From: Escherichia phage Minorna
Direction: 5' to 3' (one strand)
Sequence record: NC_048172.1
Length of the DNA stretch: 43,264 bases
In this document: piece by piece, positions 7,222 through 42,913 of the stretch
How the letters are laid out: each line of letters begins with the position of its first letter
How positions within the stretch are numbered: the first letter of the stretch is position 1
Position numbers and translations under genes: made by a program
Notes under the pieces: generated by a model
What the model was told of the DNA's origin: nothing
Database searches by the model: none
Seen by the model: only the letters and a program-made list of their open reading frames with translations

Positions 7222-10200
7222 TTAATCGTCTCCGAAGTTATTGATGATAGCTCGCGTAGGCGCGAATTCCTGGATTAACGGGACCTGCTTAGTGAAGGTC
7301 TGGATATCCATATCCCCAGTAGCCAGGGCTTGCACCGCACCCAACAGCCCGGTGACGTAGCCCATAGACGCCAGAGAATGACGCGGAGAGTCCCCAGTGA
7401 AGATATCCTGCAGAAGCGAGATACCACCGATGGCACTCATACCCATAACCGATTCAGCGATAAGCTTTTGAGTGTCGACCTCTTTGCCGTCCATACCGTG
7501 CTTCGCCATAGTTGCTAGAAGCATCAATGGGAACTGGTATGCCATGATGTGTGCAACCCCAATCCACCCGGCATCATTCAACTCGCGGCGCAGAATCTTG
7601 TTGGTGGCAGCCAGGGCGAAGCTCTGATAGCCGACAATTACTTTGCCGATAGGGTTGAACTGGGCGAAGTGCGAGGTCTCACCGGTACGTACTTGCTGCA
7701 CCAAATAGTCCATCATACGCGTCCCTACCACCTCAACTTGCATTTGCAGGTCCGGCTGGAACATAGCACCAGGATTAGCTTTGTTAGCAGCAATAGCCCG
7801 GTCAGCGATTTCACGAGTAAGACCGAAACGTTCCAGACGCTTAAACGCCTCAGCGTCGCCCTTGAACATCTGCTGGAGCTCGTCCGCTACAATACCTGAG
7901 TTAAGGTTAACCTGCAGTCGATGTACCATACTCATACCGTTGACGTGACGTGCAGCCTGTCCAACGTTCTGGGTGACGTTAAACCAGGAAGCCTGACGGG
8001 TCAGGTCCAAGTTATCGTCTGCGTAGGTATTCAACCAGCGGAAGCGCATCTCCTTCTGGATACTACCACGTAGGATTGCATCCAGACGACTAGCCATATC
8101 CGGAGTGCGAATAGCTACGGAACCTTCTTTAAACCAAGGCTGCTCACGCATACTGCGAAGTACTCGGGACATACCAAACTCTTTCAGCGCTAGGGCGGTG
8201 TCAGTAAGCTGGTACAACCCAGAGTTCTTAAGCATGGTAGCGTTGGCCATGTTACCGGCTGCACGGAGCAGGTCCGGCATCTGCCCGGCGTCGGCTGGTG
8301 CCCCACCTAAGATAAAGTCGATGGTGTCATTAACGGTCTTCTCCCACTTACCTGAATCGGCCAGGGCGTGTTTGGACTCATTAATCATTGTCTCCAGCAC
8401 CTTGAGGTCAGATATCCCAGCATAAGCCATACCCACACGACCTGACATTCGGTTAGTATAACCATGCATAACCTTGGCTACGTCAGTATCCATCAGATCC
8501 TGCATACGCATAACCTGACCGTCTACGATGTACTCTTTGTCCATGTTGAAGCGGGTACGTTGACGGAGGTTCTTAGCAGGCGAGGTGGCGCCAGATTCTC
8601 GGACATTACCTGCCAAGAAACTCTGGATTGCATCCTCGTCTACACCAGCATTACGCATGGCCATAACTACTTCATCATTACCCATACCATTGATGAGTTG
8701 CTTCCACATAGGACCAGAGGCCGAGGAGCGTCCGTTGTAGATACCGTCAACCATCTCCTTAGCAACACGTTGAACGACCTCAGGCTCCATAGATGGATAC
8801 ACATCACGCAGTGCCTGACGGAACAGATCCCGATAATTATCCAAGGAGCGACCATTTGCAATACCTTGGCGCATCTTATCGTAGCTGTACTGGCGAGGGA
8901 AGTAATAGTCCGATTTAATCAGAGTACCGTCATCCACCAGCCCGGCAGCAGTCATGTGATCGTGCCACTTACTGGCCCAGCCGGAGTTGCGGTATGCCTC
9001 TACTAGCGGAACCAAGTCAGAGTCCGGCAGAGGTACCGGGCGTCCATTAACCTCCGCGCTGTATGCAGAGTCCAGGTAACGGCCCAAGCGGGCTTCTAAG
9101 TCAGCGCGAGCTGCTCGGAAGTTGCTACGGTGGAAGAAGCGGTCTATGAAACCTACACCTTTGGCCTTAAGGGCACCAAGTATAGCGTCCTCAACTACAC
9201 TGGCACTAGCGTCCATCTCCAACGTAAGGTTACGCTTGAAGTCCACCACAGACGGTTTACGACCGCCTACAGCAGTAGCGTCAGATACTAGTAAGCGTGC
9301 CAGGTCCTCGCTACCCTCTGCGATGTTATCATACAGGGAGAACATAGTGGCGAACTTGCGCTTAGCAGTGTCCATCATAGCTTGGGCCTTCAAGGCCTCA
9401 TGCTTAACCGATGTATCCGCCAAGTCCTGGAAGGCCTCACTCCGGAAGCTCTGAGCTTGGTCTGCGTAGTCCTTTGCGGTCCACTTGACAGCATCCTCGT
9501 ACGCGTCCAGAACATCCTCCAGAGCGGACCCCTTGGTGCGAATCCCCAGGGCATTCATGATGTACTCACCAATCTGGCGGAGCATACTCCTACCAGTAGG
9601 AGATTGAGTTCTAGAGAGATACTCCACCCACTCAGGGCTATCACCTAGTCCTGCTAACATCTCGTGCACATCGCTTGCGTAGTACTTAAGCTTATCACTG
9701 AGGGTTGAATCAGCTGCTATTGCAGCGCGCACCTCTTCCAGCTTACTAGCAATTTCAGGATTCTGCTTGATGGCTCTGGTGGTGGCAGCGTGAATCAGCT
9801 CGTGCACTGCTACTCGGCTAGTGTCCGCATCCATAGCACGCAGAGCATCCCCGGCAGTAGTCCAGGTACTTCCGTTCGCTTTCTTAGGGGCACGTAAAGA
9901 TATAAAACCCCTATCAGTTGTTGATGCTGGTGAAAATCCGTAGTGACTACGGTTAGAAGAACCGGCCACCAGTTTAAAGTCGATATCCTGTACTGCGTCA
10001 CCCAGGGTGTCCAGGATAGCCTTCTGACCTTTAGATAAGTGTTCAGAGGTCTTGAGGAAACGGACTACGTCCTGCGCTTTCATGTTAACAGCAGCAGTGT
10101 TATTCCGGCGAACTTGGATAGGTTCATCCAGTACCTTAGTGAGTATTGTGTCCCCTTCTCCTACTCCTGTAACATTAGCATCCCTTGCTGTACGAGTTGT

Positions 10201-10920
10201 GGGCGCGTCCGGGTCAAACATAGGCTCACGCCCAGTGCGTGCCTTTGCTGCTGCTTTAGCAGCCTTAGACATATCCCAGAGCTGGTCTAGTCCAGCTACC
10301 CCTGCTACCAGAGCAGTGACTGCCGCAGACTGTCCCAATTGATCTTGTGCATAGACAGCTGTACCTACATCCGCTGCACGGATAGCAGTACGCACTGCTA
10401 AGCCAGCACGACCAGCGATACCCGCCGCTGACATCGGAGCCAGTATAAATGGAGCATCACCAGCCAGTGCACCGGCGAACCCAGCTACCGTGTTATCAGA
10501 CATCTGACGGTCACGGTCACGCTGTTCTAGCATAGCCTGAATGCGATAATTATAATCATCCAAGGACACCGCCCCGTGCAAGTAATCAATCTCTTCCTGA
10601 TTAGGGGTGTAGAGCTTAGCTCTGGAGTCGGTGCTTAGTTGTTTCTTAGCATCAAACCCCTGCTCTGGGATGAATGTTGGGGAGGAGGCCTTTCTAATGG
10701 CTGCAGCTATAATGCTGTTACCAACCCCAGCAGCAAAGCTTTCCCCTGCTGACGTCGCTGGGGTTTTAGCCTGGGCCAGTATAGATGAACGCTGTAGTGC
10801 ATTCAGCCCATCATCTCCTGCGTCATTCCAATCTACGCTTGCAGGCGCAGGTTTAAGTGTTGCGCCCTTAGCAGAATCCTTTTCCTGTGGATTCGGTTCT
10901 TGGTTCAGAAACTGAGCCAT
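7222..10920 (-). CDS. internal virion protein C (T7 gp16-like)
   Basis: 1232-aa ORF, third and largest of three consecutive large ORFs after tail tubular B, matching the gp14-gp15-gp16 order. Confidence 0.75.
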   Translation of the reverse strand: MAQFLNQEPNPQEKDSAKGATLKPAPASVDWNDAGDDGLNALQRSSILAQAKTPATSAGESFAAGVGNSIIAAAIRKASSPTFIPEQGFDAKKQLSTDSRAKLYTPNQEEIDYLHGAVSLDDYNYRIQAMLEQRDRDRQMSDNTVAGFAGALAGDAPFILAPMSAAGIAGRAGLAVRTAIRAADVGTAVYAQDQLGQSAAVTALVAGVAGLDQLWDMSKAAKAAAKARTGREPMFDPDAPTTRTARDANVTGVGEGDTILTKVLDEPIQVRRNNTAAVNMKAQDVVRFLKTSEHLSKGQKAILDTLGDAVQDIDFKLVAGSSNRSHYGFSPASTTDRGFISLRAPKKANGSTWTTAGDALRAMDADTSRVAVHELIHAATTRAIKQNPEIASKLEEVRAAIAADSTLSDKLKYYASDVHEMLAGLGDSPEWVEYLSRTQSPTGRSMLRQIGEYIMNALGIRTKGSALEDVLDAYEDAVKWTAKDYADQAQSFRSEAFQDLADTSVKHEALKAQAMMDTAKRKFATMFSLYDNIAEGSEDLARLLVSDATAVGGRKPSVVDFKRNLTLEMDASASVVEDAILGALKAKGVGFIDRFFHRSNFRAARADLEARLGRYLDSAYSAEVNGRPVPLPDSDLVPLVEAYRNSGWASKWHDHMTAAGLVDDGTLIKSDYYFPRQYSYDKMRQGIANGRSLDNYRDLFRQALRDVYPSMEPEVVQRVAKEMVDGIYNGRSSASGPMWKQLINGMGNDEVVMAMRNAGVDEDAIQSFLAGNVRESGATSPAKNLRQRTRFNMDKEYIVDGQVMRMQDLMDTDVAKVMHGYTNRMSGRVGMAYAGISDLKVLETMINESKHALADSGKWEKTVNDTIDFILGGAPADAGQMPDLLRAAGNMANATMLKNSGLYQLTDTALALKEFGMSRVLRSMREQPWFKEGSVAIRTPDMASRLDAILRGSIQKEMRFRWLNTYADDNLDLTRQASWFNVTQNVGQAARHVNGMSMVHRLQVNLNSGIVADELQQMFKGDAEAFKRLERFGLTREIADRAIAANKANPGAMFQPDLQMQVEVVGTRMMDYLVQQVRTGETSHFAQFNPIGKVIVGYQSFALAATNKILRRELNDAGWIGVAHIMAYQFPLMLLATMAKHGMDGKEVDTQKLIAESVMGMSAIGGISLLQDIFTGDSPRHSLASMGYVTGLLGAVQALATGDMDIQTFTKQVPLIQEFAPTRAIINNFGDD

Positions 10921-16640: not shown

Positions 16641-17201
16641 TTAAATCATAAAGCGTGCACGACGAATACGACGTGCGAATCTGGTCTTGCTGGTACTGTA
16701 CTTCTGGTTACGCAGATGCTCTCGCAACACCAAGGACTTGTACCGCTCTGCCTCTGCAGCGTAGTTGGCGTAGTTACCGTCACTTCCGAGGTCATTCAGG
16801 TACACCTGCGCAGCAGTGTAGTTTGCAATCCACATGGCGGCATGCTCCGGAAGATCCTCAAAGTTAAGGTCCAGTACCACCTTAATCTTAACAGGGGAAT
16901 CGAAGTACTCGTCCTGCTCGACCAGGTTGTAAAGGTTTCCATCACGTACACCATACTTATTGTCGGAGCACGCATCATACACTGCTAGCTGGTTCCACGG
17001 AATTTTAATAAAACCATCAGTTGTAGGGGTAACCTCCCGCTCAACCACATTGAACCAGTAACCGGTACTGAGCAATCCTCGGCGATTACGCGCGAGCGCA
17101 GAACGTGCTAATCCCGCACTAAGGTTTGAAGTATTGATATCCATAACGCGAGATTCCCCTAGGGCTTCCAGCGTCAAATTAATGGCGTCTAACTCTCTCA
17201 T
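16641..17201 (-). CDS. tail tubular protein A (T7 gp11-like)
   Basis: Position after capsid and terminator; start set to ATG 17201 (MRELDAINLT..); the track ORF to 17321 would run through the terminator hairpin. Confidence 0.7.
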   Translation of the reverse strand: MRELDAINLTLEALGESRVMDINTSNLSAGLARSALARNRRGLLSTGYWFNVVEREVTPTTDGFIKIPWNQLAVYDACSDNKYGVRDGNLYNLVEQDEYFDSPVKIKVVLDLNFEDLPEHAAMWIANYTAAQVYLNDLGSDGNYANYAAEAERYKSLVLREHLRNQKYSTSKTRFARRIRRARFMI

Positions 17202-21735: not shown

Positions 21736-21758
21736 TCCTACTCCTGTAACATTAAATT

Positions 21759-22106: not shown

Positions 22107-24575
22107 TCAACAAAAGAAGAATGGAGATTCCAGCACTTGTCGGATGTCCAAAGTACCGATTGCAGGCATCTCTAAATCTGTGAGGTCTGCCCCTGCTTCG
22201 GCAGCTGCCCGGGTAATATCTCCAAGCAGATCGTGCTCCTCGTACAACTTCACAAACTGTTCACGGATATGTCGGTGCAGGGCATCTACATCAGCCGCAT
22301 GAGTAGCCATTGAGTCGTGAATCGGGACAATATCCAGACCCTCTGCAGCACAGAGCACCATCATGAGGTGTGTGCTATCTAGGCTATGCACAAAGTTCGG
22401 AGCAATACCGGAGGCAGCCTTGCGCTTATTACAGGTCTTAAAGTCACGGTTGTGCACCAGCACGGCAGACAAGTTCATGCAGTCAATACGTACACGCACC
22501 TCCTCTCGTTGAGAGTACCGGTTCATCACTAGCCCACCTAGCGGGGTCTTCCACTGCAGATGCTGACTAGCAGGTACACGCCTAGCGAGGTTCTGCAGAT
22601 ACCCCATAGCTGCTGCTGCTGCCGGGTTAGCTTCCTCAATAGCGCTACGCATTCTAGGGGCAAGGTAGCAGGATAAGTTCCAGAGACTGTGCGTGTCTGT
22701 TCCTTCATACCCCTCTTCACAAGCACCTGCAAAGATGTAGTCGCTGCAGCTGCGCACCGTGGCGCTGTAGAAGTAGGTCATGCTAGGACGCTTGGTCATG
22801 CTTCGAGTGATTTTGTTCTCTCTCCAGTACGTGCTCTGGATAACGAAATCCTCTTTGTCCAGGTCCAGTATCACCTTCTCGTCCGTACGGCGCTTCACGT
22901 CCATATACAGGTCCGCTTTCTTGTCGTTACCCTCCCAGTACAAGTTAGTCAGGCGCCCGCCTACAGGGTCTCTCAGGAGCGCTGAGAGGTGCTGCCCACC
23001 TGAGTTTGTAGCATCCATAGCAACTGGGATTCGGCTAATATACTCTTCTGGGCATCCAGAACGTACAGCATTAACCAAGTCGATAGCGGCTGCCAGGAAG
23101 CACCAAGGGCTGTCGGCGGAGGTAAAAGCAGGGCAATCAAAAGGAGAATCCGCGAGCTGCTCAATCTCTGCAAAGTTTGCATCAACCCAAGCTGCACGGT
23201 CTTCGAATAGGGTTTTGTCATAACCAAAGCAGGTAGCGACGTGCACTTTAAGCCAGAATAACCCTCTCTCTCCCAGAGGTTTACCTCGTCCGAATTCAAG
23301 AAGTGCCTTCTGCAGATCAGAACCTTGGGGGTGCAGTGAGGACTTGAAGTACAGCCGGTATCGCCAATCCACACAGGTTGGGAAGTACAGGGCTTTCTCA
23401 TCTTTGAATTCCTCTGCCATCTCTAGCGTGGTCAATAGGCTACGTAGTTGCGACACACGCTTACGGTCAGCGCTGTACCAAAGAGACATACGCGTCTTCC
23501 ACTCTCCGAAGCGGTCGAGTTCCTCCTCGGTGTAATTCTCTTTTGGTACACCATCTAAGTACCACTCAGGTTTCGGCTCTGGCACTGAGCGCGGCATACC
23601 TACACCAATACCTAAGGCCCGTGCTTCTTGTACCAGTTCCAGTATTCGCTTATTAATGCGATAAGGAGTTTCCTGCGCCTTATTCAGTGCCTTCTTGATA
23701 CCGTCCGCAGACTTAAATGCTTCCGCTACTTCACGCAGTCTGGCGCGGTCAATGTGTGAGTTGTGGTACGTCCCACGGTTATCGATTGGGGTGAGGTATC
23801 CACCATCCCACAGTGTAGTATGTTGCACCGGCGGCACCAGCATCGGAGGCTTCATAGTTACAGTGTCAGCAGATTCCACTAACTGCTGAAATGCTTCCAT
23901 AACATTATCTGCGGGATAGAGCATACTCAAGTTCCCGCTACCAGTCTTCCATTGGAACAGCCCTGTCTCAAACACTGCGGAACACAGCAGACGTCCCACA
24001 GAAATATTCTGAGCGTTGGTCCAAGGCTCATGCCCATAGTGCACGTTCTCAGCACTGGCGCGGAGCGTACGCAGAATGTGCGTAGGCGACTTAGTACGGC
24101 GCTCAGTGAGGTATTCATATACCCGGTCCATATACGCTGGGGCAACATTACGCAGTTGTAGGGCCAGCAGCTCTGACTGTACATTCCTACCCAGAGCGGA
24201 CATCACTGCCTGTGCTGTCTGGCGGCGACTGGCGGACTCACCAGGGGCAACACTGAACGCCTCAAACATTGTGCACAGGCTCAGAGTAGTTAGGACATCC
24301 AAGGGGACTAAGCGTAGGAATCGGCGGTACTTTCCACCGATACCCGGGGCTTTGACATTACGCATTTCCTCAATGGCTGCAGAGGCCACGTCGTACGCAG
24401 AGGTTAGCATGCGCTGAGCCATAGGCAGGTTCATAATCCCGCCGTTTTGCAGAGCATCGGTAATCAATTTGCGAGCACGTTCAATGCCGCGAATCTTGTA
24501 GGTCTCTTCAAGCTCCAACTGACGTTCCACCAGCGCTTCATCTGGTACTACAACCGTATTCAGGGCGCTAATCAT
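22107..24575 (-). CDS. single-subunit DNA-directed RNA polymerase (T7-like)
   Basis: 822-aa ORF, the size of phiKMV-type single-subunit RNAPs, at the junction of replication and structural modules; AAGGAG SD upstream of the ATG. Confidence 0.85.
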   Translation of the reverse strand: MISALNTVVVPDEALVERQLELEETYKIRGIERARKLITDALQNGGIMNLPMAQRMLTSAYDVASAAIEEMRNVKAPGIGGKYRRFLRLVPLDVLTTLSLCTMFEAFSVAPGESASRRQTAQAVMSALGRNVQSELLALQLRNVAPAYMDRVYEYLTERRTKSPTHILRTLRASAENVHYGHEPWTNAQNISVGRLLCSAVFETGLFQWKTGSGNLSMLYPADNVMEAFQQLVESADTVTMKPPMLVPPVQHTTLWDGGYLTPIDNRGTYHNSHIDRARLREVAEAFKSADGIKKALNKAQETPYRINKRILELVQEARALGIGVGMPRSVPEPKPEWYLDGVPKENYTEEELDRFGEWKTRMSLWYSADRKRVSQLRSLLTTLEMAEEFKDEKALYFPTCVDWRYRLYFKSSLHPQGSDLQKALLEFGRGKPLGERGLFWLKVHVATCFGYDKTLFEDRAAWVDANFAEIEQLADSPFDCPAFTSADSPWCFLAAAIDLVNAVRSGCPEEYISRIPVAMDATNSGGQHLSALLRDPVGGRLTNLYWEGNDKKADLYMDVKRRTDEKVILDLDKEDFVIQSTYWRENKITRSMTKRPSMTYFYSATVRSCSDYIFAGACEEGYEGTDTHSLWNLSCYLAPRMRSAIEEANPAAAAAMGYLQNLARRVPASQHLQWKTPLGGLVMNRYSQREEVRVRIDCMNLSAVLVHNRDFKTCNKRKAASGIAPNFVHSLDSTHLMMVLCAAEGLDIVPIHDSMATHAADVDALHRHIREQFVKLYEEHDLLGDITRAAAEAGADLTDLEMPAIGTLDIRQVLESPFFFC

Positions 24576-27905: not shown

Positions 27906-28748
27906 TTAGGCTTGCGGTGCAGCAGGCGCTACAGGAGCCGCTGGAGCCACTGGCGCTGCCGGTGCTACAGGGGCGCTTGGTGCTGTTGGTGCTACTGGAG
28001 CACTCGGTGCCGCTGGCGCAGTGGGCGCAGCCGGGGCCTGCATAGACTGAGGGCTCGGAACCGAACCAGCGTTCAGCATAATATCCAGGGCACTGCCCGG
28101 GAAGTCTACAGCCTTGTACATATCCTCCTGAATCCAGTTCTTGCTCTTACCGTCGTCCTTGGTCCCCTCAATATATAAGCTATCCCAGGTTTCCTTGGTC
28201 GGGTTGTTCCACAAGAACAGCTTAATCTCGGAAGCATCCAGCTCAGGCATTTTAATCGGCTCACCGGTATTCGGGTCGAACTTCGGAATCGGACGGATTG
28301 CCGCGAGGTCTACAATGTTAGACTTCTTACCTGCTGCGCTGGTGTGCTCATCCAGCGGGAACACAAACGCCTGTCCCAGTCGCTGCGCAGCGTGCTTAAT
28401 GCTGCCATCGTAGTTGAGCTTGTCGAAGAACTTCTTGAAGCCCGCGCGCTCAAAGTTGCTGATGGTCATCGGATATGGACGAATACGCTTAACCTCACCG
28501 TTCGGGCCGTACACCACAATCCCGATGCGAACGTTCGGCGCGGCAGGCTTACCGGTAGGCTTACCACCTTTAGTCGGCAGGCGCTTACCAATTTCCACGT
28601 ACTCAGTAAAGTAACCGTAGTACTCACCCTTCGGCAGAAGCACATCCTCATACGCACCACCCTGGGCGGTCTCAGTCATATCAACTTCTTGAGTTTCAAT
28701 CGCAGCAGCAACCAGGGAGTTCAGAGTGTCCAGTGCATTCATAGTCAT
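27906..28748 (-). CDS. hypothetical protein with C-terminal Pro/Ala-rich repeat tail (possible DNA-binding protein)
   Basis: 280 aa; globular N-terminal part followed by about 43 aa of (A/V/T/S)PAAP-type repeats. Confidence 0.55.
   Translation of the reverse strand: MTMNALDTLNSLVAAAIETQEVDMTETAQGGAYEDVLLPKGEYYGYFTEYVEIGKRLPTKGGKPTGKPAAPNVRIGIVVYGPNGEVKRIRPYPMTISNFERAGFKKFFDKLNYDGSIKHAAQRLGQAFVFPLDEHTSAAGKKSNIVDLAAIRPIPKFDPNTGEPIKMPELDASEIKLFLWNNPTKETWDSLYIEGTKDDGKSKNWIQEDMYKAVDFPGSALDIMLNAGSVPSPQSMQAPAAPTAPAAPSAPVAPTAPSAPVAPAAPVAPAAPVAPAAPQA
27909..28037 (-). repeat. imperfect in-frame tandem DNA repeat encoding the Pro/Ala-rich tail
   Basis: Plus-strand series of gcNggNgc(c/t)ac(t/a)gg-like units (gctacaggagccgctggagccactggcgctgccggtgctacagg...). 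Confidence 0.7.
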
Positions 28749-28799
28749 ATAATTACGTCCTCGTTTAGTTCAAGTAATATTTACGTGCAGATGCAGGGC

Positions 28800-28964
28800 T
28801 TAGAGTTTTGAAGCGACGGCGGCGGCAACGAACACCAGGATTATAGCCAGCGCAGCAGGGCCCCAGAACGGGAGCAGCACCCACAGCCAAGACCAGGTGA
28901 TAACTCCGGTCAGTTTCAAGGTTACAAAGATAAGGCCCAGTACAGAACAGATTCCCATTTTCAT
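28800..28964 (-). CDS. small hydrophobic membrane protein (2 predicted TM helices)
   Basis: Translation MKMGICSVLGLIFVTLKLTGVITWSWLWVLLPFWGPAALAIILVFVAAAVASKL; start set to ATG 28964 (GAGGTG upstream; alternative ATG 28958); track ORF extends to 29006. Confidence 0.45.
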   Translation of the reverse strand: MKMGICSVLGLIFVTLKLTGVITWSWLWVLLPFWGPAALAIILVFVAAAVASKL

Positions 28965-28977
28965 AATCACCTCTACG

Positions 28978-29958
28978 TTATTTAGAACGGCCAACCCAAC
29001 GACCATCGTCGTCGAGCAGCATCGGAATTAGCTGCGGACAACCCTCTGTGATTACCAGTACGCCTAGGATTGGTTTCTTACGGGCTAACCTACCGTATGC
29101 AAAGGCCAGACTCTTACGGTCAATCAAGCAGCCTGCATACGCGCCAAAATATAGTGCCGTCGAAGACGCTGCATACTGAACTTCGAACCGCCCATGCTCG
29201 TGACCGAGAACCAGTGAAGTGCGCTCATGGGACGCATTAAGCATGAAGTCACCTGATACTTGATGCTGGAAGCGGACAGGTCCCAGCGGTGTATTAAGTA
29301 CCCAAGCATCGGCCCACGACCATGCCGGAGCACCGTGCTCAGGGAACAAGATATCGCGGTACTTCTTAATAAATTGCACCGGCAAACCGTGAGCCTTGGC
29401 GCGACGATACACCAGACTCCCGTGATTGGAATCGCATACGAGAAGATTCGGGAAGAGTTCATGCAGCTGCTCCAGTACTAACTTAGCCTTCTCCAGTTCC
29501 ACCCCGGCGCTATCCAGGTTCGGGTTGCTTTCGTGGAATGAAATAGCGTGGCCGTCAGTCTCATCCCCAACTTGTACAACCATATCCGGGCAGTAAGTGT
29601 CTCGGACAGACTCTAAGAAGTCCATAGCGTCTACGTGGGTGTAAGGGGCATGCAGATCCCCTACCACTAAGATGCGGTGACACACCTCCGGGACGAAGGT
29701 TTTACCTAGGTCATCAGTCGGACTTGGCTGTATAAGCTTTAATGCCTCCTTCATATGTGACACAGCCTTGCCCTTGCTACCACCGTGATCTAGGAATATG
29801 CTGCGCCAATACTTAACCATCTGACGATATACTACTGGCTCACTTAACCCAGCCAGCTTATTATAGGCAGCTGCAGCATCCACGTTAGAGCTATACTTGC
29901 TCAGGATGTCTACATGTTGTTCTTTGGTGAACAGCTTTATTGTGTTTAACTTAGGCAT
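28978..29958 (-). CDS. calcineurin-like metallophosphoesterase
   Basis: 326 aa with ordered metallophosphatase motifs: VVGDLHAP (GDxH), VQVGDETDGH (GDxxD), DSNHG (GNH), GHEHG. Confidence 0.7.
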   Translation of the reverse strand: MPKLNTIKLFTKEQHVDILSKYSSNVDAAAAYNKLAGLSEPVVYRQMVKYWRSIFLDHGGSKGKAVSHMKEALKLIQPSPTDDLGKTFVPEVCHRILVVGDLHAPYTHVDAMDFLESVRDTYCPDMVVQVGDETDGHAISFHESNPNLDSAGVELEKAKLVLEQLHELFPNLLVCDSNHGSLVYRRAKAHGLPVQFIKKYRDILFPEHGAPAWSWADAWVLNTPLGPVRFQHQVSGDFMLNASHERTSLVLGHEHGRFEVQYAASSTALYFGAYAGCLIDRKSLAFAYGRLARKKPILGVLVITEGCPQLIPMLLDDDGRWVGRSK

Positions 29959-30385
29959 TCCAGCTCCTGTTACTTATTACGTCACTGATTACGTGTACAC
30001 CTACACCATACTTATTGGCGAAGTATTGTCGCACACCTTTCTTGTAAGGGATATAGTTATTTCTAATATCCTGCACAGCATCCCAAGATAGCTTCGCTTT
30101 TGGGTTTCTCTCTCCACGCACATCCGGGTTCCTTCCACGTTCCGCACGGTCTCTCATATTATCTAAATGTGTCCCCAGCACGAGGTGTTCTGGATTAATA
30201 CATCTAGGATTATCACAGGTATGCCTAACAGATAAGCCAGCTATAACATCTAAGCTTAGCCCGTTATGTTCTGCATACACCACCCTGTGTAGCAGTTCTA
30301 AGCGCTTGGTTGGTTTGTACCAAGCCCTACGATAGCCATTCTTATTAAGGCATTTAGTATACCCGTGGTCAATACACATCGACAT
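29951..30385 (-). CDS. HNH homing endonuclease
   Basis: 144 aa with HRVVYAEHNG..VRHTCDNPRCINPEHLVLGTHLDNM, a typical phage HNH nuclease motif; preceded by a 160-nt AT-rich non-coding segment. Confidence 0.8.
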   Translation of the reverse strand: MSMCIDHGYTKCLNKNGYRRAWYKPTKRLELLHRVVYAEHNGLSLDVIAGLSVRHTCDNPRCINPEHLVLGTHLDNMRDRAERGRNPDVRGERNPKAKLSWDAVQDIRNNYIPYKKGVRQYFANKYGVGVHVISDVISNRSWNA

Positions 30386-30546
30386 TTGGTATCCTCTTAT
30401 GTTGTTCCTACTCGTATCACATTAATTCTCGGTAAATCACAGAATCAAGCCAGAGTCAACAAATAATTTTATTTAATTATCTGCTTGACCCCAGCTAATT
30501 CTCGTGTTACCCTAACCCCCTACACCGCCCAAGGGTCCACCTATCA

Positions 30547-30768
30547 TCACTCCGCGATGAGCTTGTACTCTCCAGCGAAGAAGGTGATGCCGTCCCCAGG
30601 CTTCTCTGAATTATTGTCTGGATTCATTAACTCCACCTCCCAGAATTCGGGGTCATAAGATATCACACGATGCTGAGTGCCTGGTGCAAAGTAATCACGA
30701 TGTCTAGGTTCTAAGGGTTCCGGCCCAAGTCCCAGTATCTCCACAATACTACCCGGTTTAATAGTCAT
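30547..30768 (-). CDS. hypothetical protein (73 aa)
   Basis: Small ORF directly after the DNA polymerase gene; start overlaps the polymerase stop. Confidence 0.45.
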   Translation of the reverse strand: MTIKPGSIVEILGLGPEPLEPRHRDYFAPGTQHRVISYDPEFWEVELMNPDNNSEKPGDGITFFAGEYKLIAE

Positions 30769-33131
30769 TCTACTTTCTCCTTACTGTACATGCTTGTACC
30801 CATTTCAGCTTCCGCTGGGAACGGGACTTCGCCAATGATGCCGTAGTTAGGCCAGAGCTGGTGAATACGCTTAGGTGCATCCTCCATACACTGCTTAACT
30901 AACAGGCTCGCTTCTCTGCCTACTTCCGGATTAGCACTATCCAGATACAATGCATCGTGCACGTTCGTAATCAAGCACACCTGATTATTGAACCAATCCC
31001 GTGCCAGCATTGCACGCAGAACCATACCAGCTGCTACCGCCATCAGGAAGAATGCCTCACCCTGACACCAGTAGTTAGCCATCTCAGTTTCTTTGTAGTC
31101 CATCACCTTTTGTTTGCGCTGGCCAGGGACTACTTCCTTCCACTGCTCCTTCTGGCGGAAACTGTACCGTGCACCAGCTGGGCTGGTCCAGGTGCCAATG
31201 CGGTAGATGCGGTAGCTGCCATCATCCGCTTGCTCCCGGTAAATGCGCCCAGCCGCCCCGGTGCGCTCTACCTCCTCCTTTACTACCGCCCGGAATCCGA
31301 TGGTGTCTGGGAACAGCTTCGCCTCGTTATCCAGGAACGACTGCGCATACTCCACTGTACAGCCTGTAGCAAACGCAATCCCTTTAGCCGTAGCCCCGTA
31401 CTGTGCAGCAAAGCTCGGAGGCTTAATGTCCGTACGCTGCTGCTTCCAGTATTTGTAGTCCGGCCCATCTGCGTTGTGGCAGAGGTCGTACATCTCTTCG
31501 TAGGTTTTGCCCTCCTTGAACGCTAGGCGGTAGCAGTGCATATCCGTGCCGTTCTGCAGCAAACCCAACAGCTTCCTGTCTCCGGTGTGAACACAAGACA
31601 TAACCACTTCCAGGGCAGAGTAGTCAACCTCAGTGATACGACCGGATTCACCGAAACGGGAAGTGAACATCTGTTTTACTTTACTAGTTCCATCTCGCGG
31701 GAGATTCTGGAGGTTTGGGTTAGAGCCAGATAGTCTCCCGGTAACAGTAGCACAGGTGTTGAGGCGGTGGTGGATAACACCCGAACCATCAAGGTTCTGA
31801 GGTATAACATATTGGAGCATGCCTGAGGTCTTTTTAATTGACCCATCTTCGTTATACTCCGTTCGTAGATAGTAAGTTCCTGTATCCTTTTCCAGAGCGC
31901 CGAGTTCGTTCACCAATCGACAGAACTCAAATCCATGACGTGCTAGGGCTTCCATTGCATCTGTGCTGGTGCTGTAGATTGGTGTCCCATCCTGCAAGCA
32001 CCGAGCTTGCCTGAACTCCCCACGCTCAGCGTATTTCTCTCGGAGCACCTCTGGGAGTTCTTGGATGTTAACTAGGCCTGGACAGAAGTAGAGGTCGTCC
32101 TCCCACTTGAGTTTCTCCTCTTCAGTGTCCACTCGGAACACTTTTGGTAGGCCCTTGTTCTTCCCTGCTTTGTAGGTTACATAATTGTGTGGTCCAGATA
32201 CGTCGGTGCTATCACAAGGTACGAATGTTCCGTCAGTGCCCTGCACCAGGTACGCATCACACTTAACGTACTGTGGAGGGTCGTATGGTACTTTCTTGCG
32301 ATACTTGATAGGGCCACCGTATACCAGTGCAGACATATGGAAGTCCGAGCCGAAGTTGAAATCCAGTGTCTCCGGCAAGTCCTTCGGGATGTATTGTTGC
32401 AGCTCCTTCTTAATCTCCAGGATACGCTGCTCCTGCTCCTCTTGGTTCTTGCGAGCAATGGGCATATTCACGAACAGACCGAACCATTCGCAGTAGGCCC
32501 AGGCCAGTAAGGCATCCATGCGCTCCCACACATACTGCATCTGATTACGCTGGGCGAACGTAGCGCACTGGCCGTAGAAGCACAGGGCCGTGTTCGGTAT
32601 ATCCCCATTCACTAGGTAGTCATGCAATAGCATAGGATCAATCTGGGAGGTTAATACACCTTGATCCCAGAGAATCTTAACCCCATCTACTTTGTGCGTA
32701 CCGCCGTACTTAGGAGCCGTCTCGTCCAGTGACGGATACATGCTCTGAAAGTCCGAGGCGATGTATTCTCCGTGCATCGTGCAGAACACCCTGCCGCCGC
32801 GCTTGAGGAAGGCCTCAAACTGCTGCCGCTGGTACGTGAGAAACCAAGAAATCTCATAGGCTGCGTTGTGCGCAACAATAAGCCAGCAATCTTCTGGGAT
32901 ATGAAACCACCGGCAGCCTTCTGCTGCACTGTTTCCCGCCAAGAAATCAGCTCTTGAATTGAAGCGCACCGATTGAGTCGCACCAACAGTGGTAGTACCG
33001 TCAGCCTGTGTCGTGTCGATACGCCATGCTGACTCAACAACATAGTTGTCAGGGCAGTATGGGCTTGCTTTAGAGCCATAATATTCATGGTTCTCTGTCT
33101 CCAAGTCGATGTGCATTATGCTGGTTGTCAT
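30765..33131 (-). CDS. DNA polymerase (family A, with 3'-5' exonuclease domain)
   Basis: 788 aa; N-terminal Exo I-like HIDLETE; Pol A fingers motif VTGRLSGSNPNLQNLP; position after the helicase gene. Confidence 0.85.
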   Translation of the reverse strand: MTTSIMHIDLETENHEYYGSKASPYCPDNYVVESAWRIDTTQADGTTTVGATQSVRFNSRADFLAGNSAAEGCRWFHIPEDCWLIVAHNAAYEISWFLTYQRQQFEAFLKRGGRVFCTMHGEYIASDFQSMYPSLDETAPKYGGTHKVDGVKILWDQGVLTSQIDPMLLHDYLVNGDIPNTALCFYGQCATFAQRNQMQYVWERMDALLAWAYCEWFGLFVNMPIARKNQEEQEQRILEIKKELQQYIPKDLPETLDFNFGSDFHMSALVYGGPIKYRKKVPYDPPQYVKCDAYLVQGTDGTFVPCDSTDVSGPHNYVTYKAGKNKGLPKVFRVDTEEEKLKWEDDLYFCPGLVNIQELPEVLREKYAERGEFRQARCLQDGTPIYSTSTDAMEALARHGFEFCRLVNELGALEKDTGTYYLRTEYNEDGSIKKTSGMLQYVIPQNLDGSGVIHHRLNTCATVTGRLSGSNPNLQNLPRDGTSKVKQMFTSRFGESGRITEVDYSALEVVMSCVHTGDRKLLGLLQNGTDMHCYRLAFKEGKTYEEMYDLCHNADGPDYKYWKQQRTDIKPPSFAAQYGATAKGIAFATGCTVEYAQSFLDNEAKLFPDTIGFRAVVKEEVERTGAAGRIYREQADDGSYRIYRIGTWTSPAGARYSFRQKEQWKEVVPGQRKQKVMDYKETEMANYWCQGEAFFLMAVAAGMVLRAMLARDWFNNQVCLITNVHDALYLDSANPEVGREASLLVKQCMEDAPKRIHQLWPNYGIIGEVPFPAEAEMGTSMYSKEKVE

Positions 33132-40690: not shown

Positions 40691-40720
40691 TTCACATAGC
40701 GCCCCGCAGGACGCTATAGG
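40691..40720 (-). promoter_or_regulatory. conserved dyad element, copy 1 (atagcg-N10-cgctat)
   Basis: Plus strand ttcacatagcgccccgcaggacgctatagg; 26 of 30 nt identical to copy 2, with a compensatory pair change in the stem; lies in a 188-nt intergenic gap; a perfect TATAAT (minus strand, 40732-40727) sits just upstream. Confidence 0.5.
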
Positions 40721-40855
40721 CTTACCATTATACGTATTCTCCCAATCCCTCATAGTGCCACCTGTTATGGCGGCCTCGGGTTGGCACATCAAAGGCGTCA
40801 GAGTCGTTAGCTGCCGGAATCAGTGCTCACCACTTGATAGCTTGAATCTTATAAA

Positions 40856-41466: not shown

Positions 41467-41496
41467 TTCACATAGCACCCCATAGGATGCTATAGG
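41467..41496 (-). promoter_or_regulatory. conserved dyad element, copy 2 (atagca-N10-tgctat)
   Basis: Plus strand ttcacatagcaccccataggatgctatagg; relative to copy 1 the stem changes G/C to A/T at paired positions; 36 nt upstream of the ATG at 41431. Confidence 0.5.
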
Positions 41497-41502
41497 CTGT
41501 AA

Positions 41503-42295: not shown

Positions 42296-42499
42296 CCCTT
42301 TTTGTTGAGTATATAACCCTTCACACTATCTAGCCTTAATCCGGCGGAGTCTCCCGACTCTGCCCCGTTCAGCGCCTCAGCGCCTCCCGGTGATTGAACT
42401 ATAGCGCCAATAAACCAAAGGAAGCAAGCACTTTTTTAAACTTTTTATCACTAGGAGCAAAAAGGGTAAGCAGGGCAATGATTTAGCCAATGCCTCCAT

Positions 42500-42549
42500 T
42501 CTAGGGATAGCTCTAGGGATAGCCCAATACTAGCCAATACTAACTAATA
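42500..42549. repeat. tandem 12-mer tctagggatagc x2 followed by ccaatacta(g/a)-type tandem units
   Basis: Plus strand tctagggatagctctagggatagc then ccaatactagccaatactaactaatac. Confidence 0.85.
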
Positions 42550-42771
42550 CCATTTAACGCTACACAAAGCAGAGCGCAGTGACGTAACGGGAGTGGAGTC
42601 ACGGAGCGATGCGGTGACTGTGTAGGTAATGCTTACTCCCTACGGTCGTAATATAGGGCATTACTAGGGGATACTAGTGAATAGTAGTAAGTAGTATGTA
42701 TCTAGTGCCCTAAAACCCTCCTACTCGTGTAACATCATTTCTAAATAGCTTTCGAATGAAAGTAAGGGGAA

Positions 42772-42792
42772 AGGGATAGCTCTAGGGATAGC
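42772..42792. repeat. second copy of the gggatagc-tctagggatagc repeat
   Basis: Plus strand agggatagctctagggatagc, about 270 nt from the first copy. Confidence 0.85.
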
Positions 42793-42879
42793 AAAGGATA
42801 ACGCTAGGTGGCGGATAGTGGAAGTGCGCCCTAGTGGGGAGCGCGCAGCGTAGCATATAATCGGCACAATGTAAAGCAC

Positions 42880-42913
42880 TAGAGATAACCCTAGAGATAG
42901 CTCTAGAGATAGC
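42880..42913. repeat. variant repeat ctagagataaccctagagatagctctagagatagc
   Basis: Same CTAG-(G/A)GATA(G/A)C unit family with G to A variants; agagataaccctag recurs at 43051-43064. Confidence 0.85.

Follow-up and report, generated by a model that had tools for sequence, protein, structure and literature searches.

The stretch of DNA that we analyzed, hereafter the window, comprises 43,264 nucleotides of Escherichia phage Minorna (NC_048172.1). It is the genome of a KP34-like phage (Drulisvirus, Autographiviridae), and approximately 246 phage records match the region considered here. The nearest genome is that of Escherichia phage AV102, with 94% identity over 23 kb. Our analysis centers on a small nuclease gene in the replication module and on the features that surround it, given here in the order in which they are read on the minus strand:

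30765-33131, minus strand: family-A DNA polymerase gene, on the upstream side of the 73-aa gene
30547-30768, minus strand: 73-aa gene of unknown function, KP34 gp21-like, the upstream neighbor of the nuclease gene (PHROG 6862, E = 8e-43)
30386-30546, minus strand: intergenic gap of 161 nt, a conserved region assigned to the backbone and placed outside the mobile unit
29951-30385, minus strand: HNH (His-Me finger) endonuclease gene of 144 aa, here called HNH-A
29951-29958, minus strand: 8-nt overlap of the HNH stop and the metallophosphoesterase start, ATGCCTAA, from the ORF coordinates
28978-29958, minus strand: metallophosphoesterase (MPE) gene of 326 aa (PHROG 221, E = 9e-106; weak Pfam Metallophos match)

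Open reading frames, Pfam, and PHROG all confirm the initial sequence-only reading of this region, which had placed an HNH gene between the DNA polymerase region and a metallophosphoesterase. The 73-aa gene on its upstream side is conserved and annotated in every relative examined. On its downstream side, the 8-nt overlap physically joins HNH to MPE and probably couples their translation, and the same overlap is found in Klebsiella phage 6995, in Escherichia phage IK_ECO1, and in three more distant contigs (L012, L013, and L016). The gene does not have the setting of the terminase-associated (packaging) HNH proteins of cos phages: its neighbors are the DNA polymerase, the 73-aa gene, and the metallophosphoesterase rather than terminase or portal genes, neither of which is adjacent. 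A scan for terminators returned a sole match, which lies on the opposite strand, inside the MPE start and just downstream of the HNH stop, and which we accordingly set aside.

The 144-aa ORF is readily assigned to a nuclease family. It matches Pfam HNH_3 (PF13392; E = 3.2e-11, 43.1 bits against a cut-off of 24.8), Pfam zf-His_Me_endon (27.6 against a cut-off of 27), and PHROG 6254, "HNH endonuclease" (E = 1.7e-27). In an alignment of 63 homologous sequences, residues H55, C57, D58, C62, H67, N76, and D79 are invariant, and the catalytic His, the metal-binding Asn, and the Cys/His zinc ligands are intact in the window's copy. A sequence search of the PDB with the protein returned nothing beyond I-PpoI, a weak match (E = 0.6) in which the HNH motif aligns with the H98...N119 region. 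The AlphaFold model (pLDDT 91.4) consists of a beta-beta-alpha nuclease core, which has the beta-beta-alpha-metal fold, and a C-terminal three-helix bundle; the zinc site is carried by the N-terminal nuclease domain. The closest structural matches of this model are the homing endonucleases I-HmuI and I-PpoI. Furthermore, the three-helix bundle (residues 101-137) resembles the helix-turn-helix domains of homeodomain proteins, Tc3, and Hin, as well as the layout of I-HmuI, and the model thus predicts a helix-turn-helix-like, DNA-binding C-terminal domain.

Both the nuclease gene and the gap upstream of it are unusual in composition, which bears out the contrast with GC-richer surroundings that the sequence-only reading had reported. 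At 43.9% GC, compared with 51.5% for the whole window, the HNH ORF falls in the lowest 1% of 435-nt windows, and its GC3 is 42.8% versus 59.4% for the polymerase. The contrast is modest in relatives, where GC of the gene is 46.9% (6995) and 49.4% (IK_ECO1). The gap, with 41.0% GC, is in the lowest 0.9% of 161-nt windows. It had been described as an AT-rich stretch of 160 nt; the low-GC gap is real, but its AT-richness is limited to the promoter-proximal ~110 nt (28-42% GC), and the 50 nt adjoining the 73-aa gene are G-rich (53-60% GC).

The position between the gap and MPE, hereafter the slot, is variable. Among the approximately 243 Drulisvirus records that match the gap, its occupancy is as follows:

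HNH-A: 15 records, 82-89% nucleotide identity to the window's gene
HNH-B, a second HNH: 15 records (for example, phiHAO78-1), 47% protein identity to HNH-A, with copies 97-100% identical to one another, suggestive of a recent sweep
gp22, "Gp5.5-like" (92 aa, host HNS inhibition): 34 records (for example, KP34, FBKp18, and KpV475)
None of these three cassettes: the remaining records, with an empty slot in every such genome examined (for example, ZH5 and AV102)

In all 15 records with HNH-A, its position is identical. AV102 and ZH5 lack HNH and have clean junctions, and AV102 retains no remnant of the gene. HNH-A is therefore polymorphic for presence and absence at one locus among close relatives. 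Between the copies of the window, 6995, and IK_ECO1, dN/dS is 0.05-0.07 and dS is 0.56-1.09. Judged by these ratios, the gene is under strong purifying selection (dN/dS about 0.05) and is therefore functional and old, not a decaying recent invader. HNH-A copies have diverged from each other to the same extent as backbone genes.

An argument can be made from these data that HNH is a core gene inherited from an ancestor and lost on repeated occasions, with the AT-rich stretch as its native upstream region. The alleles are old (dS 0.56-1.09), the protein is well conserved, and the position is constant in 15 records. Yet these are just 15 of approximately 243 records, and the nearest relative, AV102, is without the gene or any remnant. 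In addition, as described below, the stretch upstream is equally conserved in phages that lack HNH, and the ancestry of the patch that contains the gene differs from that of its flanks. We therefore regard an ancestral core gene as very improbable and this interpretation as largely refuted; neither the universal presence nor the uniform composition that the sequence-only reading had associated with it was found.

The gap itself has a different history from the gene that follows it. It matches 243 records with 86-97% identity (coverage of at least 80% in 231) and is nearly unchanged whether the slot is empty or occupied by gp22, HNH-A, or HNH-B. Similarity shared among these slot states extends to ...AACATAAGAG and then stops. 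Even the neighboring 73-aa gene is clearly less conserved than the gap. Because the gap is near-invariant with or without HNH, the comparison assigns it to the backbone, as neither a part nor a hallmark of the HNH insertion. On this point the sequence-only reading, for which the AT-rich stretch was the hallmark of an invading nuclease gene, was mistaken: the stretch is not an insertion mark, and no other non-coding element of the region is as well conserved.

The conservation of the gap also bears on how HNH is expressed. It had been suggested that the AT-rich segment supplies a promoter, and one could take this stretch to be a sigma-70 promoter that belongs to HNH and was imported with the insertion. 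The hexamers TTGACT (30459-30454) and TTGATT (30448-30443) are indeed present on the minus strand, which is the coding strand, with an A/T-rich tract before them. However, a lenient consensus scan of positions 29700-30900 (-35/-10 pairs, spacing of 16-18 nt) found no sites, compared with 2.3 expected in shuffled sequences, and neither hexamer pairs with an acceptable -10 element. TTGACT instead falls within a conserved hairpin, in its 3' arm, with TTGATT just beyond on the 3' side. Furthermore, the entire stretch is near-invariant in genomes without HNH, which refutes its imported origin. That HNH came with a sigma-70 promoter of its own is accordingly a suggestion to which we give hardly any credence.

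Two other elements in the gap are better candidates for regulatory signals:

30449-30495, minus strand: conserved stem-loop core of ~20 bp with an AAAUAA loop; the window's own fold reaches 30432-30511
30424-30409, minus strand: promoter-like TAATGTGATACGAGTA, followed by GG, a 13/16 match to the strong promoter of the KP34 RNA polymerase

The window's own stem-loop has a minimum free energy of -51 kcal/mol (z = -4.4). Its consensus across nine phages contains one compensatory pair along with several one-sided G-U/A-U changes, which are compatible with the sense RNA strand only. When positions 29700-30900 were searched against Rfam, the sole match was a chance-level miRNA (E = 0.57; 20.8 bits against a gathering score of 80). 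Downstream of the hairpin, the promoter-like motif falls within a 17-nt degenerate pattern that occurs four times, always on one strand, compared with 0.05 copies expected. Each of the other three is either identical to the KP34 promoter T(A/G)ATGTTACAGGAGTA or agrees with it at 15/16 positions. Lu et al. (2019, PMC6834552) used 5'-RACE and transcription in vitro to define that strong promoter. The gap motif shares with the three canonical copies its strand, the 5' TAAT, and the 3' GAGTA followed by GG, but it has three internal substitutions (positions 7, 9, and 11) and is absent among the promoters reported for KP34. A literature search for the sequence of the variant motif found no match. 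Another element, the palindrome that Eriksson et al. described as a "putative phage promoter," is inactive in vitro according to Lu et al. (PMC6834552); we ruled it out as the gap element, as it is a different sequence located in the early region.

The motif is almost unchanged in nine phages, with a single C-to-T change in phiHAO78-1. Transcription from it is predicted to start at G30408, giving a leader of 23 nt to the ATG at 30385 that would contain a strong Shine-Dalgarno sequence (AAGAGGA, 30398-30392). From the sequence, it is plausible that the motif is a backbone promoter of the phage RNA polymerase type and not one that belongs to HNH. In intergenic regions of T7, an RNase III hairpin precedes a phage promoter. 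By analogy, the gap may most simply be viewed as a hairpin for processing or termination with a promoter downstream. Phages JKT5 and NTUH-K2044-K1-1 carry a third, unrelated HNH of the DHINGN type within the gap itself; there it takes the place of the hairpin's 5' arm and loop, and the promoter-like motif is retained.

Comparison of the window with its closest relatives revealed that HNH is embedded in a larger tract of foreign ancestry:

29507-30385, minus strand: mosaic patch relative to AV102, covering HNH and MPE codons 1 to about 150, delimited by sliding identity and a base-level breakpoint
30431-30592, minus strand: raised divergence from AV102, with 13 differences versus 3 in the next 190 nt

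Identity between the window and AV102 is 95-100% at 30600-31899 and mostly 84-100% at 28000-29499 (81% at 28900-28999). Between these flanks it drops to 77-39% at 29500-29999, and AV102 has no counterpart over HNH. Phages 6995 and IK_ECO1, which carry HNH-A, display the opposite pattern: they are 85-93% identical to the window at 29500-29999 and 71-93% identical over HNH, but their polymerases are just 63-85% identical to the window's (31200-31899). The patch as a whole is 83-93% identical to that of the best HNH carrier, 6995. Its downstream crossover is sharp, falling within 29507-29525 in the invariant AACCTGGATAGCGC stretch. The upstream side is less clearly bounded. Alleles of the window at 30431-30592 are no closer to the sampled HNH-A phages than to AV102, and the imported tract may extend about 200 nt upstream, to include gap sequence and the last part of the 73-aa gene. 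Low GC across the whole patch was considered and ruled out; the MPE 5' part linked to HNH has 48.5% GC and normal GC3, and the contrast is essentially limited to the HNH ORF.

The MPE gene of the window is consequently a mosaic, with an HNH-linked allele over its 5' ~450 nt and AV102-like sequence over the rest. At the protein level, it is 83% identical to the MPE of AV102, with a divergent N-terminus, identity from about residue 150, and an 18-aa segment of the AV102 protein missing. Alleles of the MPE 5' part are hypervariable (56-68% identity between alleles), and the exchanged first ~150 codons include the metal-binding motifs. The window's 5' allele (29480-29950) was found at 82% identity or more in the 15 records that carry HNH-A; outside them, the best match is 74%. 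Given that this allele is confined to HNH-A records, the exchanged unit is HNH together with the first ~150 MPE codons. These comparisons support the view that HNH-A moves horizontally as a cassette and is not a core gene. The sequence-only reading of an invasive insertion therefore holds insofar as a mobile cassette is concerned (15 of approximately 243 records, an empty slot in AV102, and a mosaic patch), but not as a simple insertion, since the unit includes ~450 nt of MPE. Transfer with flanking sequence is the footprint that co-conversion would leave, and the same footprint would fit plain recombination. No copy of HNH-A in the databases exceeds 89% nucleotide identity to the window's, and thus the donor is unsampled. 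That the window gained the unit, as opposed to AV102 having lost it, is judged by parsimony among the relatives that infect E. coli.

Linkage between HNH and MPE extends beyond the genus. On other phage contigs of ~44 kb, relatives of HNH with 69% and 60% identity lie directly upstream of an MPE homolog (72% and 45% identical, respectively) with the 8-nt overlap preserved, and their upstream neighbor is an endonuclease VII gene. A Logan contig carries a 90%-identical copy of HNH in the Drulisvirus arrangement. More distant homologs (30-56% identity) occupy many different positions in Autographiviridae, for example between primase and helicase. The protein at the T7 7.7 locus belongs to the same family and has the same length (34.5% identity over 97% of the HNH query), and HNH proteins of the T7 7.7/5.3 type share PHROG 6254 with the window's HNH. 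On the T7 map, gene 5.3 is located just after the DNA polymerase gene. The window's gene differs from 7.7 and 5.3 in genus and in flanking genes, and unlike them it overlaps the start of MPE and follows a conserved regulatory gap. Its orthologs at the same position are annotated in Klebsiella phages 6995, KpV71, RMN1, and ZX22 and in Escherichia phage IK_ECO1; most are 82-89% identical in nucleotides and 90-94% in protein and share the 8-nt overlap with MPE. In contrast to these phages, the window carries HNH in an AV102-like E. coli phage backbone that is otherwise without it.

Homing endonucleases of phages include I-HmuI of SPO1 and SegF, SegG, and MobE of T4, and intronless homing is the mode of those that are free-standing. 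The window's gene resembles free-standing phage HNH homing endonucleases in several ways. It encodes a small HNH nuclease with a predicted domain of the helix-turn-helix type, it lies between conserved genes of the replication module and is sporadic among close relatives, and it was transferred with flanking sequence of a neighboring gene. It departs from typical intronless homing in that HNH-A alleles are old and strongly constrained, and in that the flank moved along with the gene is an entire divergent allele of ~450 nt instead of a short marker gradient. A literature search for HNH homing in Drulisvirus found nothing.

Our results are best explained, and with reasonable confidence, by a free-standing HNH endonuclease of the homing type that was swapped in together with the 5' end of MPE and is expressed from signals of the backbone. 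This explanation builds on the nuclease family, the intact motif, the sporadic distribution, the mosaic patch, the linkage, the purifying selection, and the backbone gap, from which we infer cleavage activity, its target, and use of the promoter. Specifically, a member of the T7 gp5.3/gp7.7-like HNH_3 family would occupy a variable, promoter-proximal slot of the replication module. A module of ~0.9-1.1 kb, comprising HNH and the first ~450 nt of MPE, would have recombined from an unsampled HNH-carrying phage into an AV102-like backbone, with one crossover in or near the invariant gap and the other at the first well-conserved stretch of MPE (29507-29525). Expression of HNH could occur by read-through, from the KP34-RNA-polymerase-type promoter 23 nt upstream, or both, aided by the strong Shine-Dalgarno sequence. 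During mixed infection, the nuclease would cut or nick genomes that lack HNH near the slot, the likeliest site being the 5' part of MPE. Repair from an HNH-carrying genome would then copy HNH along with the linked, presumably resistant 5' allele of MPE. Such a process would amount to intronless homing with co-conversion.

Some features of the locus can be accounted for without homing. HNH may be an accessory or domesticated nuclease, and the promoter-proximal position a "moron" slot for several accessory genes that can replace one another. It would then be moved by ordinary homologous recombination only and be of benefit to the phage, for example by excluding competitors, degrading host DNA, or processing DNA. 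The slot also holds nothing or, in 34 records, the non-nuclease "Gp5.5-like" gp22, and Drulisvirus genomes are mosaic in general. The invariant gap and the conserved core of MPE provide ready homology arms, and divergence of the MPE 5' part leaves hardly any other places for a crossover. Transfer of this part along with HNH may thus reflect a lack of homology for crossing over in the hypervariable segment as opposed to co-conversion. Furthermore, dN/dS of 0.05 over dS of up to 1.1 reflects strong purifying selection, and an old, constrained HNH-A is no less compatible with the long-term upkeep of a useful gene than with a purely selfish element. Nevertheless, the architecture of the protein and its nearest structural analogs are those of site-specific homing endonucleases, and this one locus is a point of convergence for at least three distinct HNH lineages. 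In addition, adjacency of HNH and MPE is kept across genera despite differing upstream context, which is the expected product of a nuclease with a target in the MPE gene. For these reasons we consider an accessory nuclease spread by recombination alone to be rather unlikely, and we favor the homing-type interpretation.

A more ambitious version of the homing interpretation is that HNH-A targets MPE genes and forms, with a resistant MPE 5' allele, a mobile unit that is distributed across podophage genera, for which the gap, with its hairpin and an unreported fourth, variant promoter, serves as a landing pad used by at least three unrelated HNH lineages. We offer this proposal tentatively and would sooner doubt it than rely on it. 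The kind of gene is well known, its orthologs being already annotated as HNH endonucleases in several deposited phages. What our analysis adds is modestly new: a mosaic patch defined at the level of single bases, an exclusive linkage of HNH and MPE alleles that spans genera, a conserved regulatory gap on which three HNH lineages have converged, and a candidate variant promoter. The locus is an ordinary phage feature that leaves the current understanding of homing endonucleases unchanged. It does, at base-pair resolution, document how a nuclease gene and part of its neighbor move between phages as one unit, and it suggests an RNA hairpin and a candidate fourth promoter for KP34-like phages. The main relevance is to those who annotate or engineer Klebsiella and E. 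coli phages for therapy. Between the gap and MPE, directly behind a likely phage promoter, lies a natural and tolerated position for a cassette, at which gp22, either of two HNH types, or no gene at all may be present.

Within the window, a tblastn search for further HNH genes found none. A 26-nt repeat shared between the 3' end of HNH (29998-30023) and positions 16943-16968 was considered as a trace of a second copy and rejected as a chance match; the partner at 16943-16968 lies in a 226-aa ORF that adjoins large virion-type genes.

The conserved intergenic gap (30386-30546), together with the cassette position between it and the metallophosphoesterase gene, forms a hotspot where HNH genes of at least three lineages occur. 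One of these, HNH-B, is the second HNH type found at the variable cassette position; it encodes 130 aa (for example, in phiHAO78-1, L003 1416-1808), and its copies are 97-100% identical among 15 phages that have diverged in other respects. Such near-identity looks like a recent sweep. In contrast, the alleles of HNH-A, the 144-aa gene found in Minorna, are old and diverged. A further, distinct type, of 104-119 aa and marked by DHINGN, sits within the conserved intergenic region itself in two phages:

L006 892-1386, DHINGN-type HNH gene of JKT5
L007 1201-1622, DHINGN-type HNH gene of NTUH-K2044-K1-1

With this insertion, the 5' arm and loop of a hairpin are replaced, while the promoter-like motif (30409-30424, minus strand) is kept. 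The conserved hairpin in this gap is the following:

30449-30495 (core) and 30432-30511 (extended), minus strand, RNA-type stem-loop

The stem-loop lies immediately upstream of the promoter-like motif, and its variation among the nine phages consists of G-U/A-U switches along with one compensatory pair. The stem-loop may be a processing site or a terminator, or serve some other role.

HNH genes also occur on other contigs. On L012 (25-3438), a phage contig of ~44 kb, the 3.5 kb upstream of its own metallophosphoesterase gene contain a gene for endonuclease VII and three of the HNH_3 type. On contig L016 (126-1150), an additional HNH_3 ORF adjoins a 182-aa ORF shortly before the start of the 73-aa gene. 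The annotation of some relatives (records phi1_146045 and phi1_146001) lists "DNA polymerase (x2)". The L016 arrangement and this annotation possibly reflect DNA polymerase genes that were split by HNH insertion.

The N-terminal ~150 residues of the metallophosphoesterase exist as several strongly divergent alleles (window 29659-29958 versus L009 3517-4022), whereas the remainder of the protein is almost identical between them. The alleles differ by an indel of 18 aa, and the proteins are 326, 325, or 344 aa long.

Elsewhere in the window, the experimentally defined strong promoter of the KP34 RNA polymerase has three minus-strand copies, each an exact or 15/16 match, which agree with the three sites reported for KP34 (PMC6834552):

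10159-10175, minus strand, within a 1232-aa ORF (7222-10920)
21736-21752, minus strand, shortly downstream of the RNA polymerase ORF (22107-24575)
42719-42735, minus strand, close to the genome's early end

Two kinds of repeat were also recorded:

40691-40722 and 41467-41498, 32-nt palindromic repeat
42503-42523, 42772-42792, 42881-42901, and 42893-42913, four copies of the 21-nt repeat AGGGATAGCTCTAGGGATAGC

The palindrome is of the same type as the consensus that Eriksson et al. 2015 called a "putative phage promoter"; in vitro, KP34 RNA polymerase showed no activity on that element (Lu et al. 2019, PMC6834552). The 21-nt repeat lies near the window end that holds the early region, in GC-poor sequence (42.8% over 42401-42800).

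Finally, one ORF has a repetitive C terminus:

27906-28748, minus strand, 280-aa ORF with a long Pro/Ala-rich repeat tail (APAAPTAPAAPSAPVAPTAP...)

Its annotation varies among relatives, being either "protein p21" or "Fe-S oxidoreductase."
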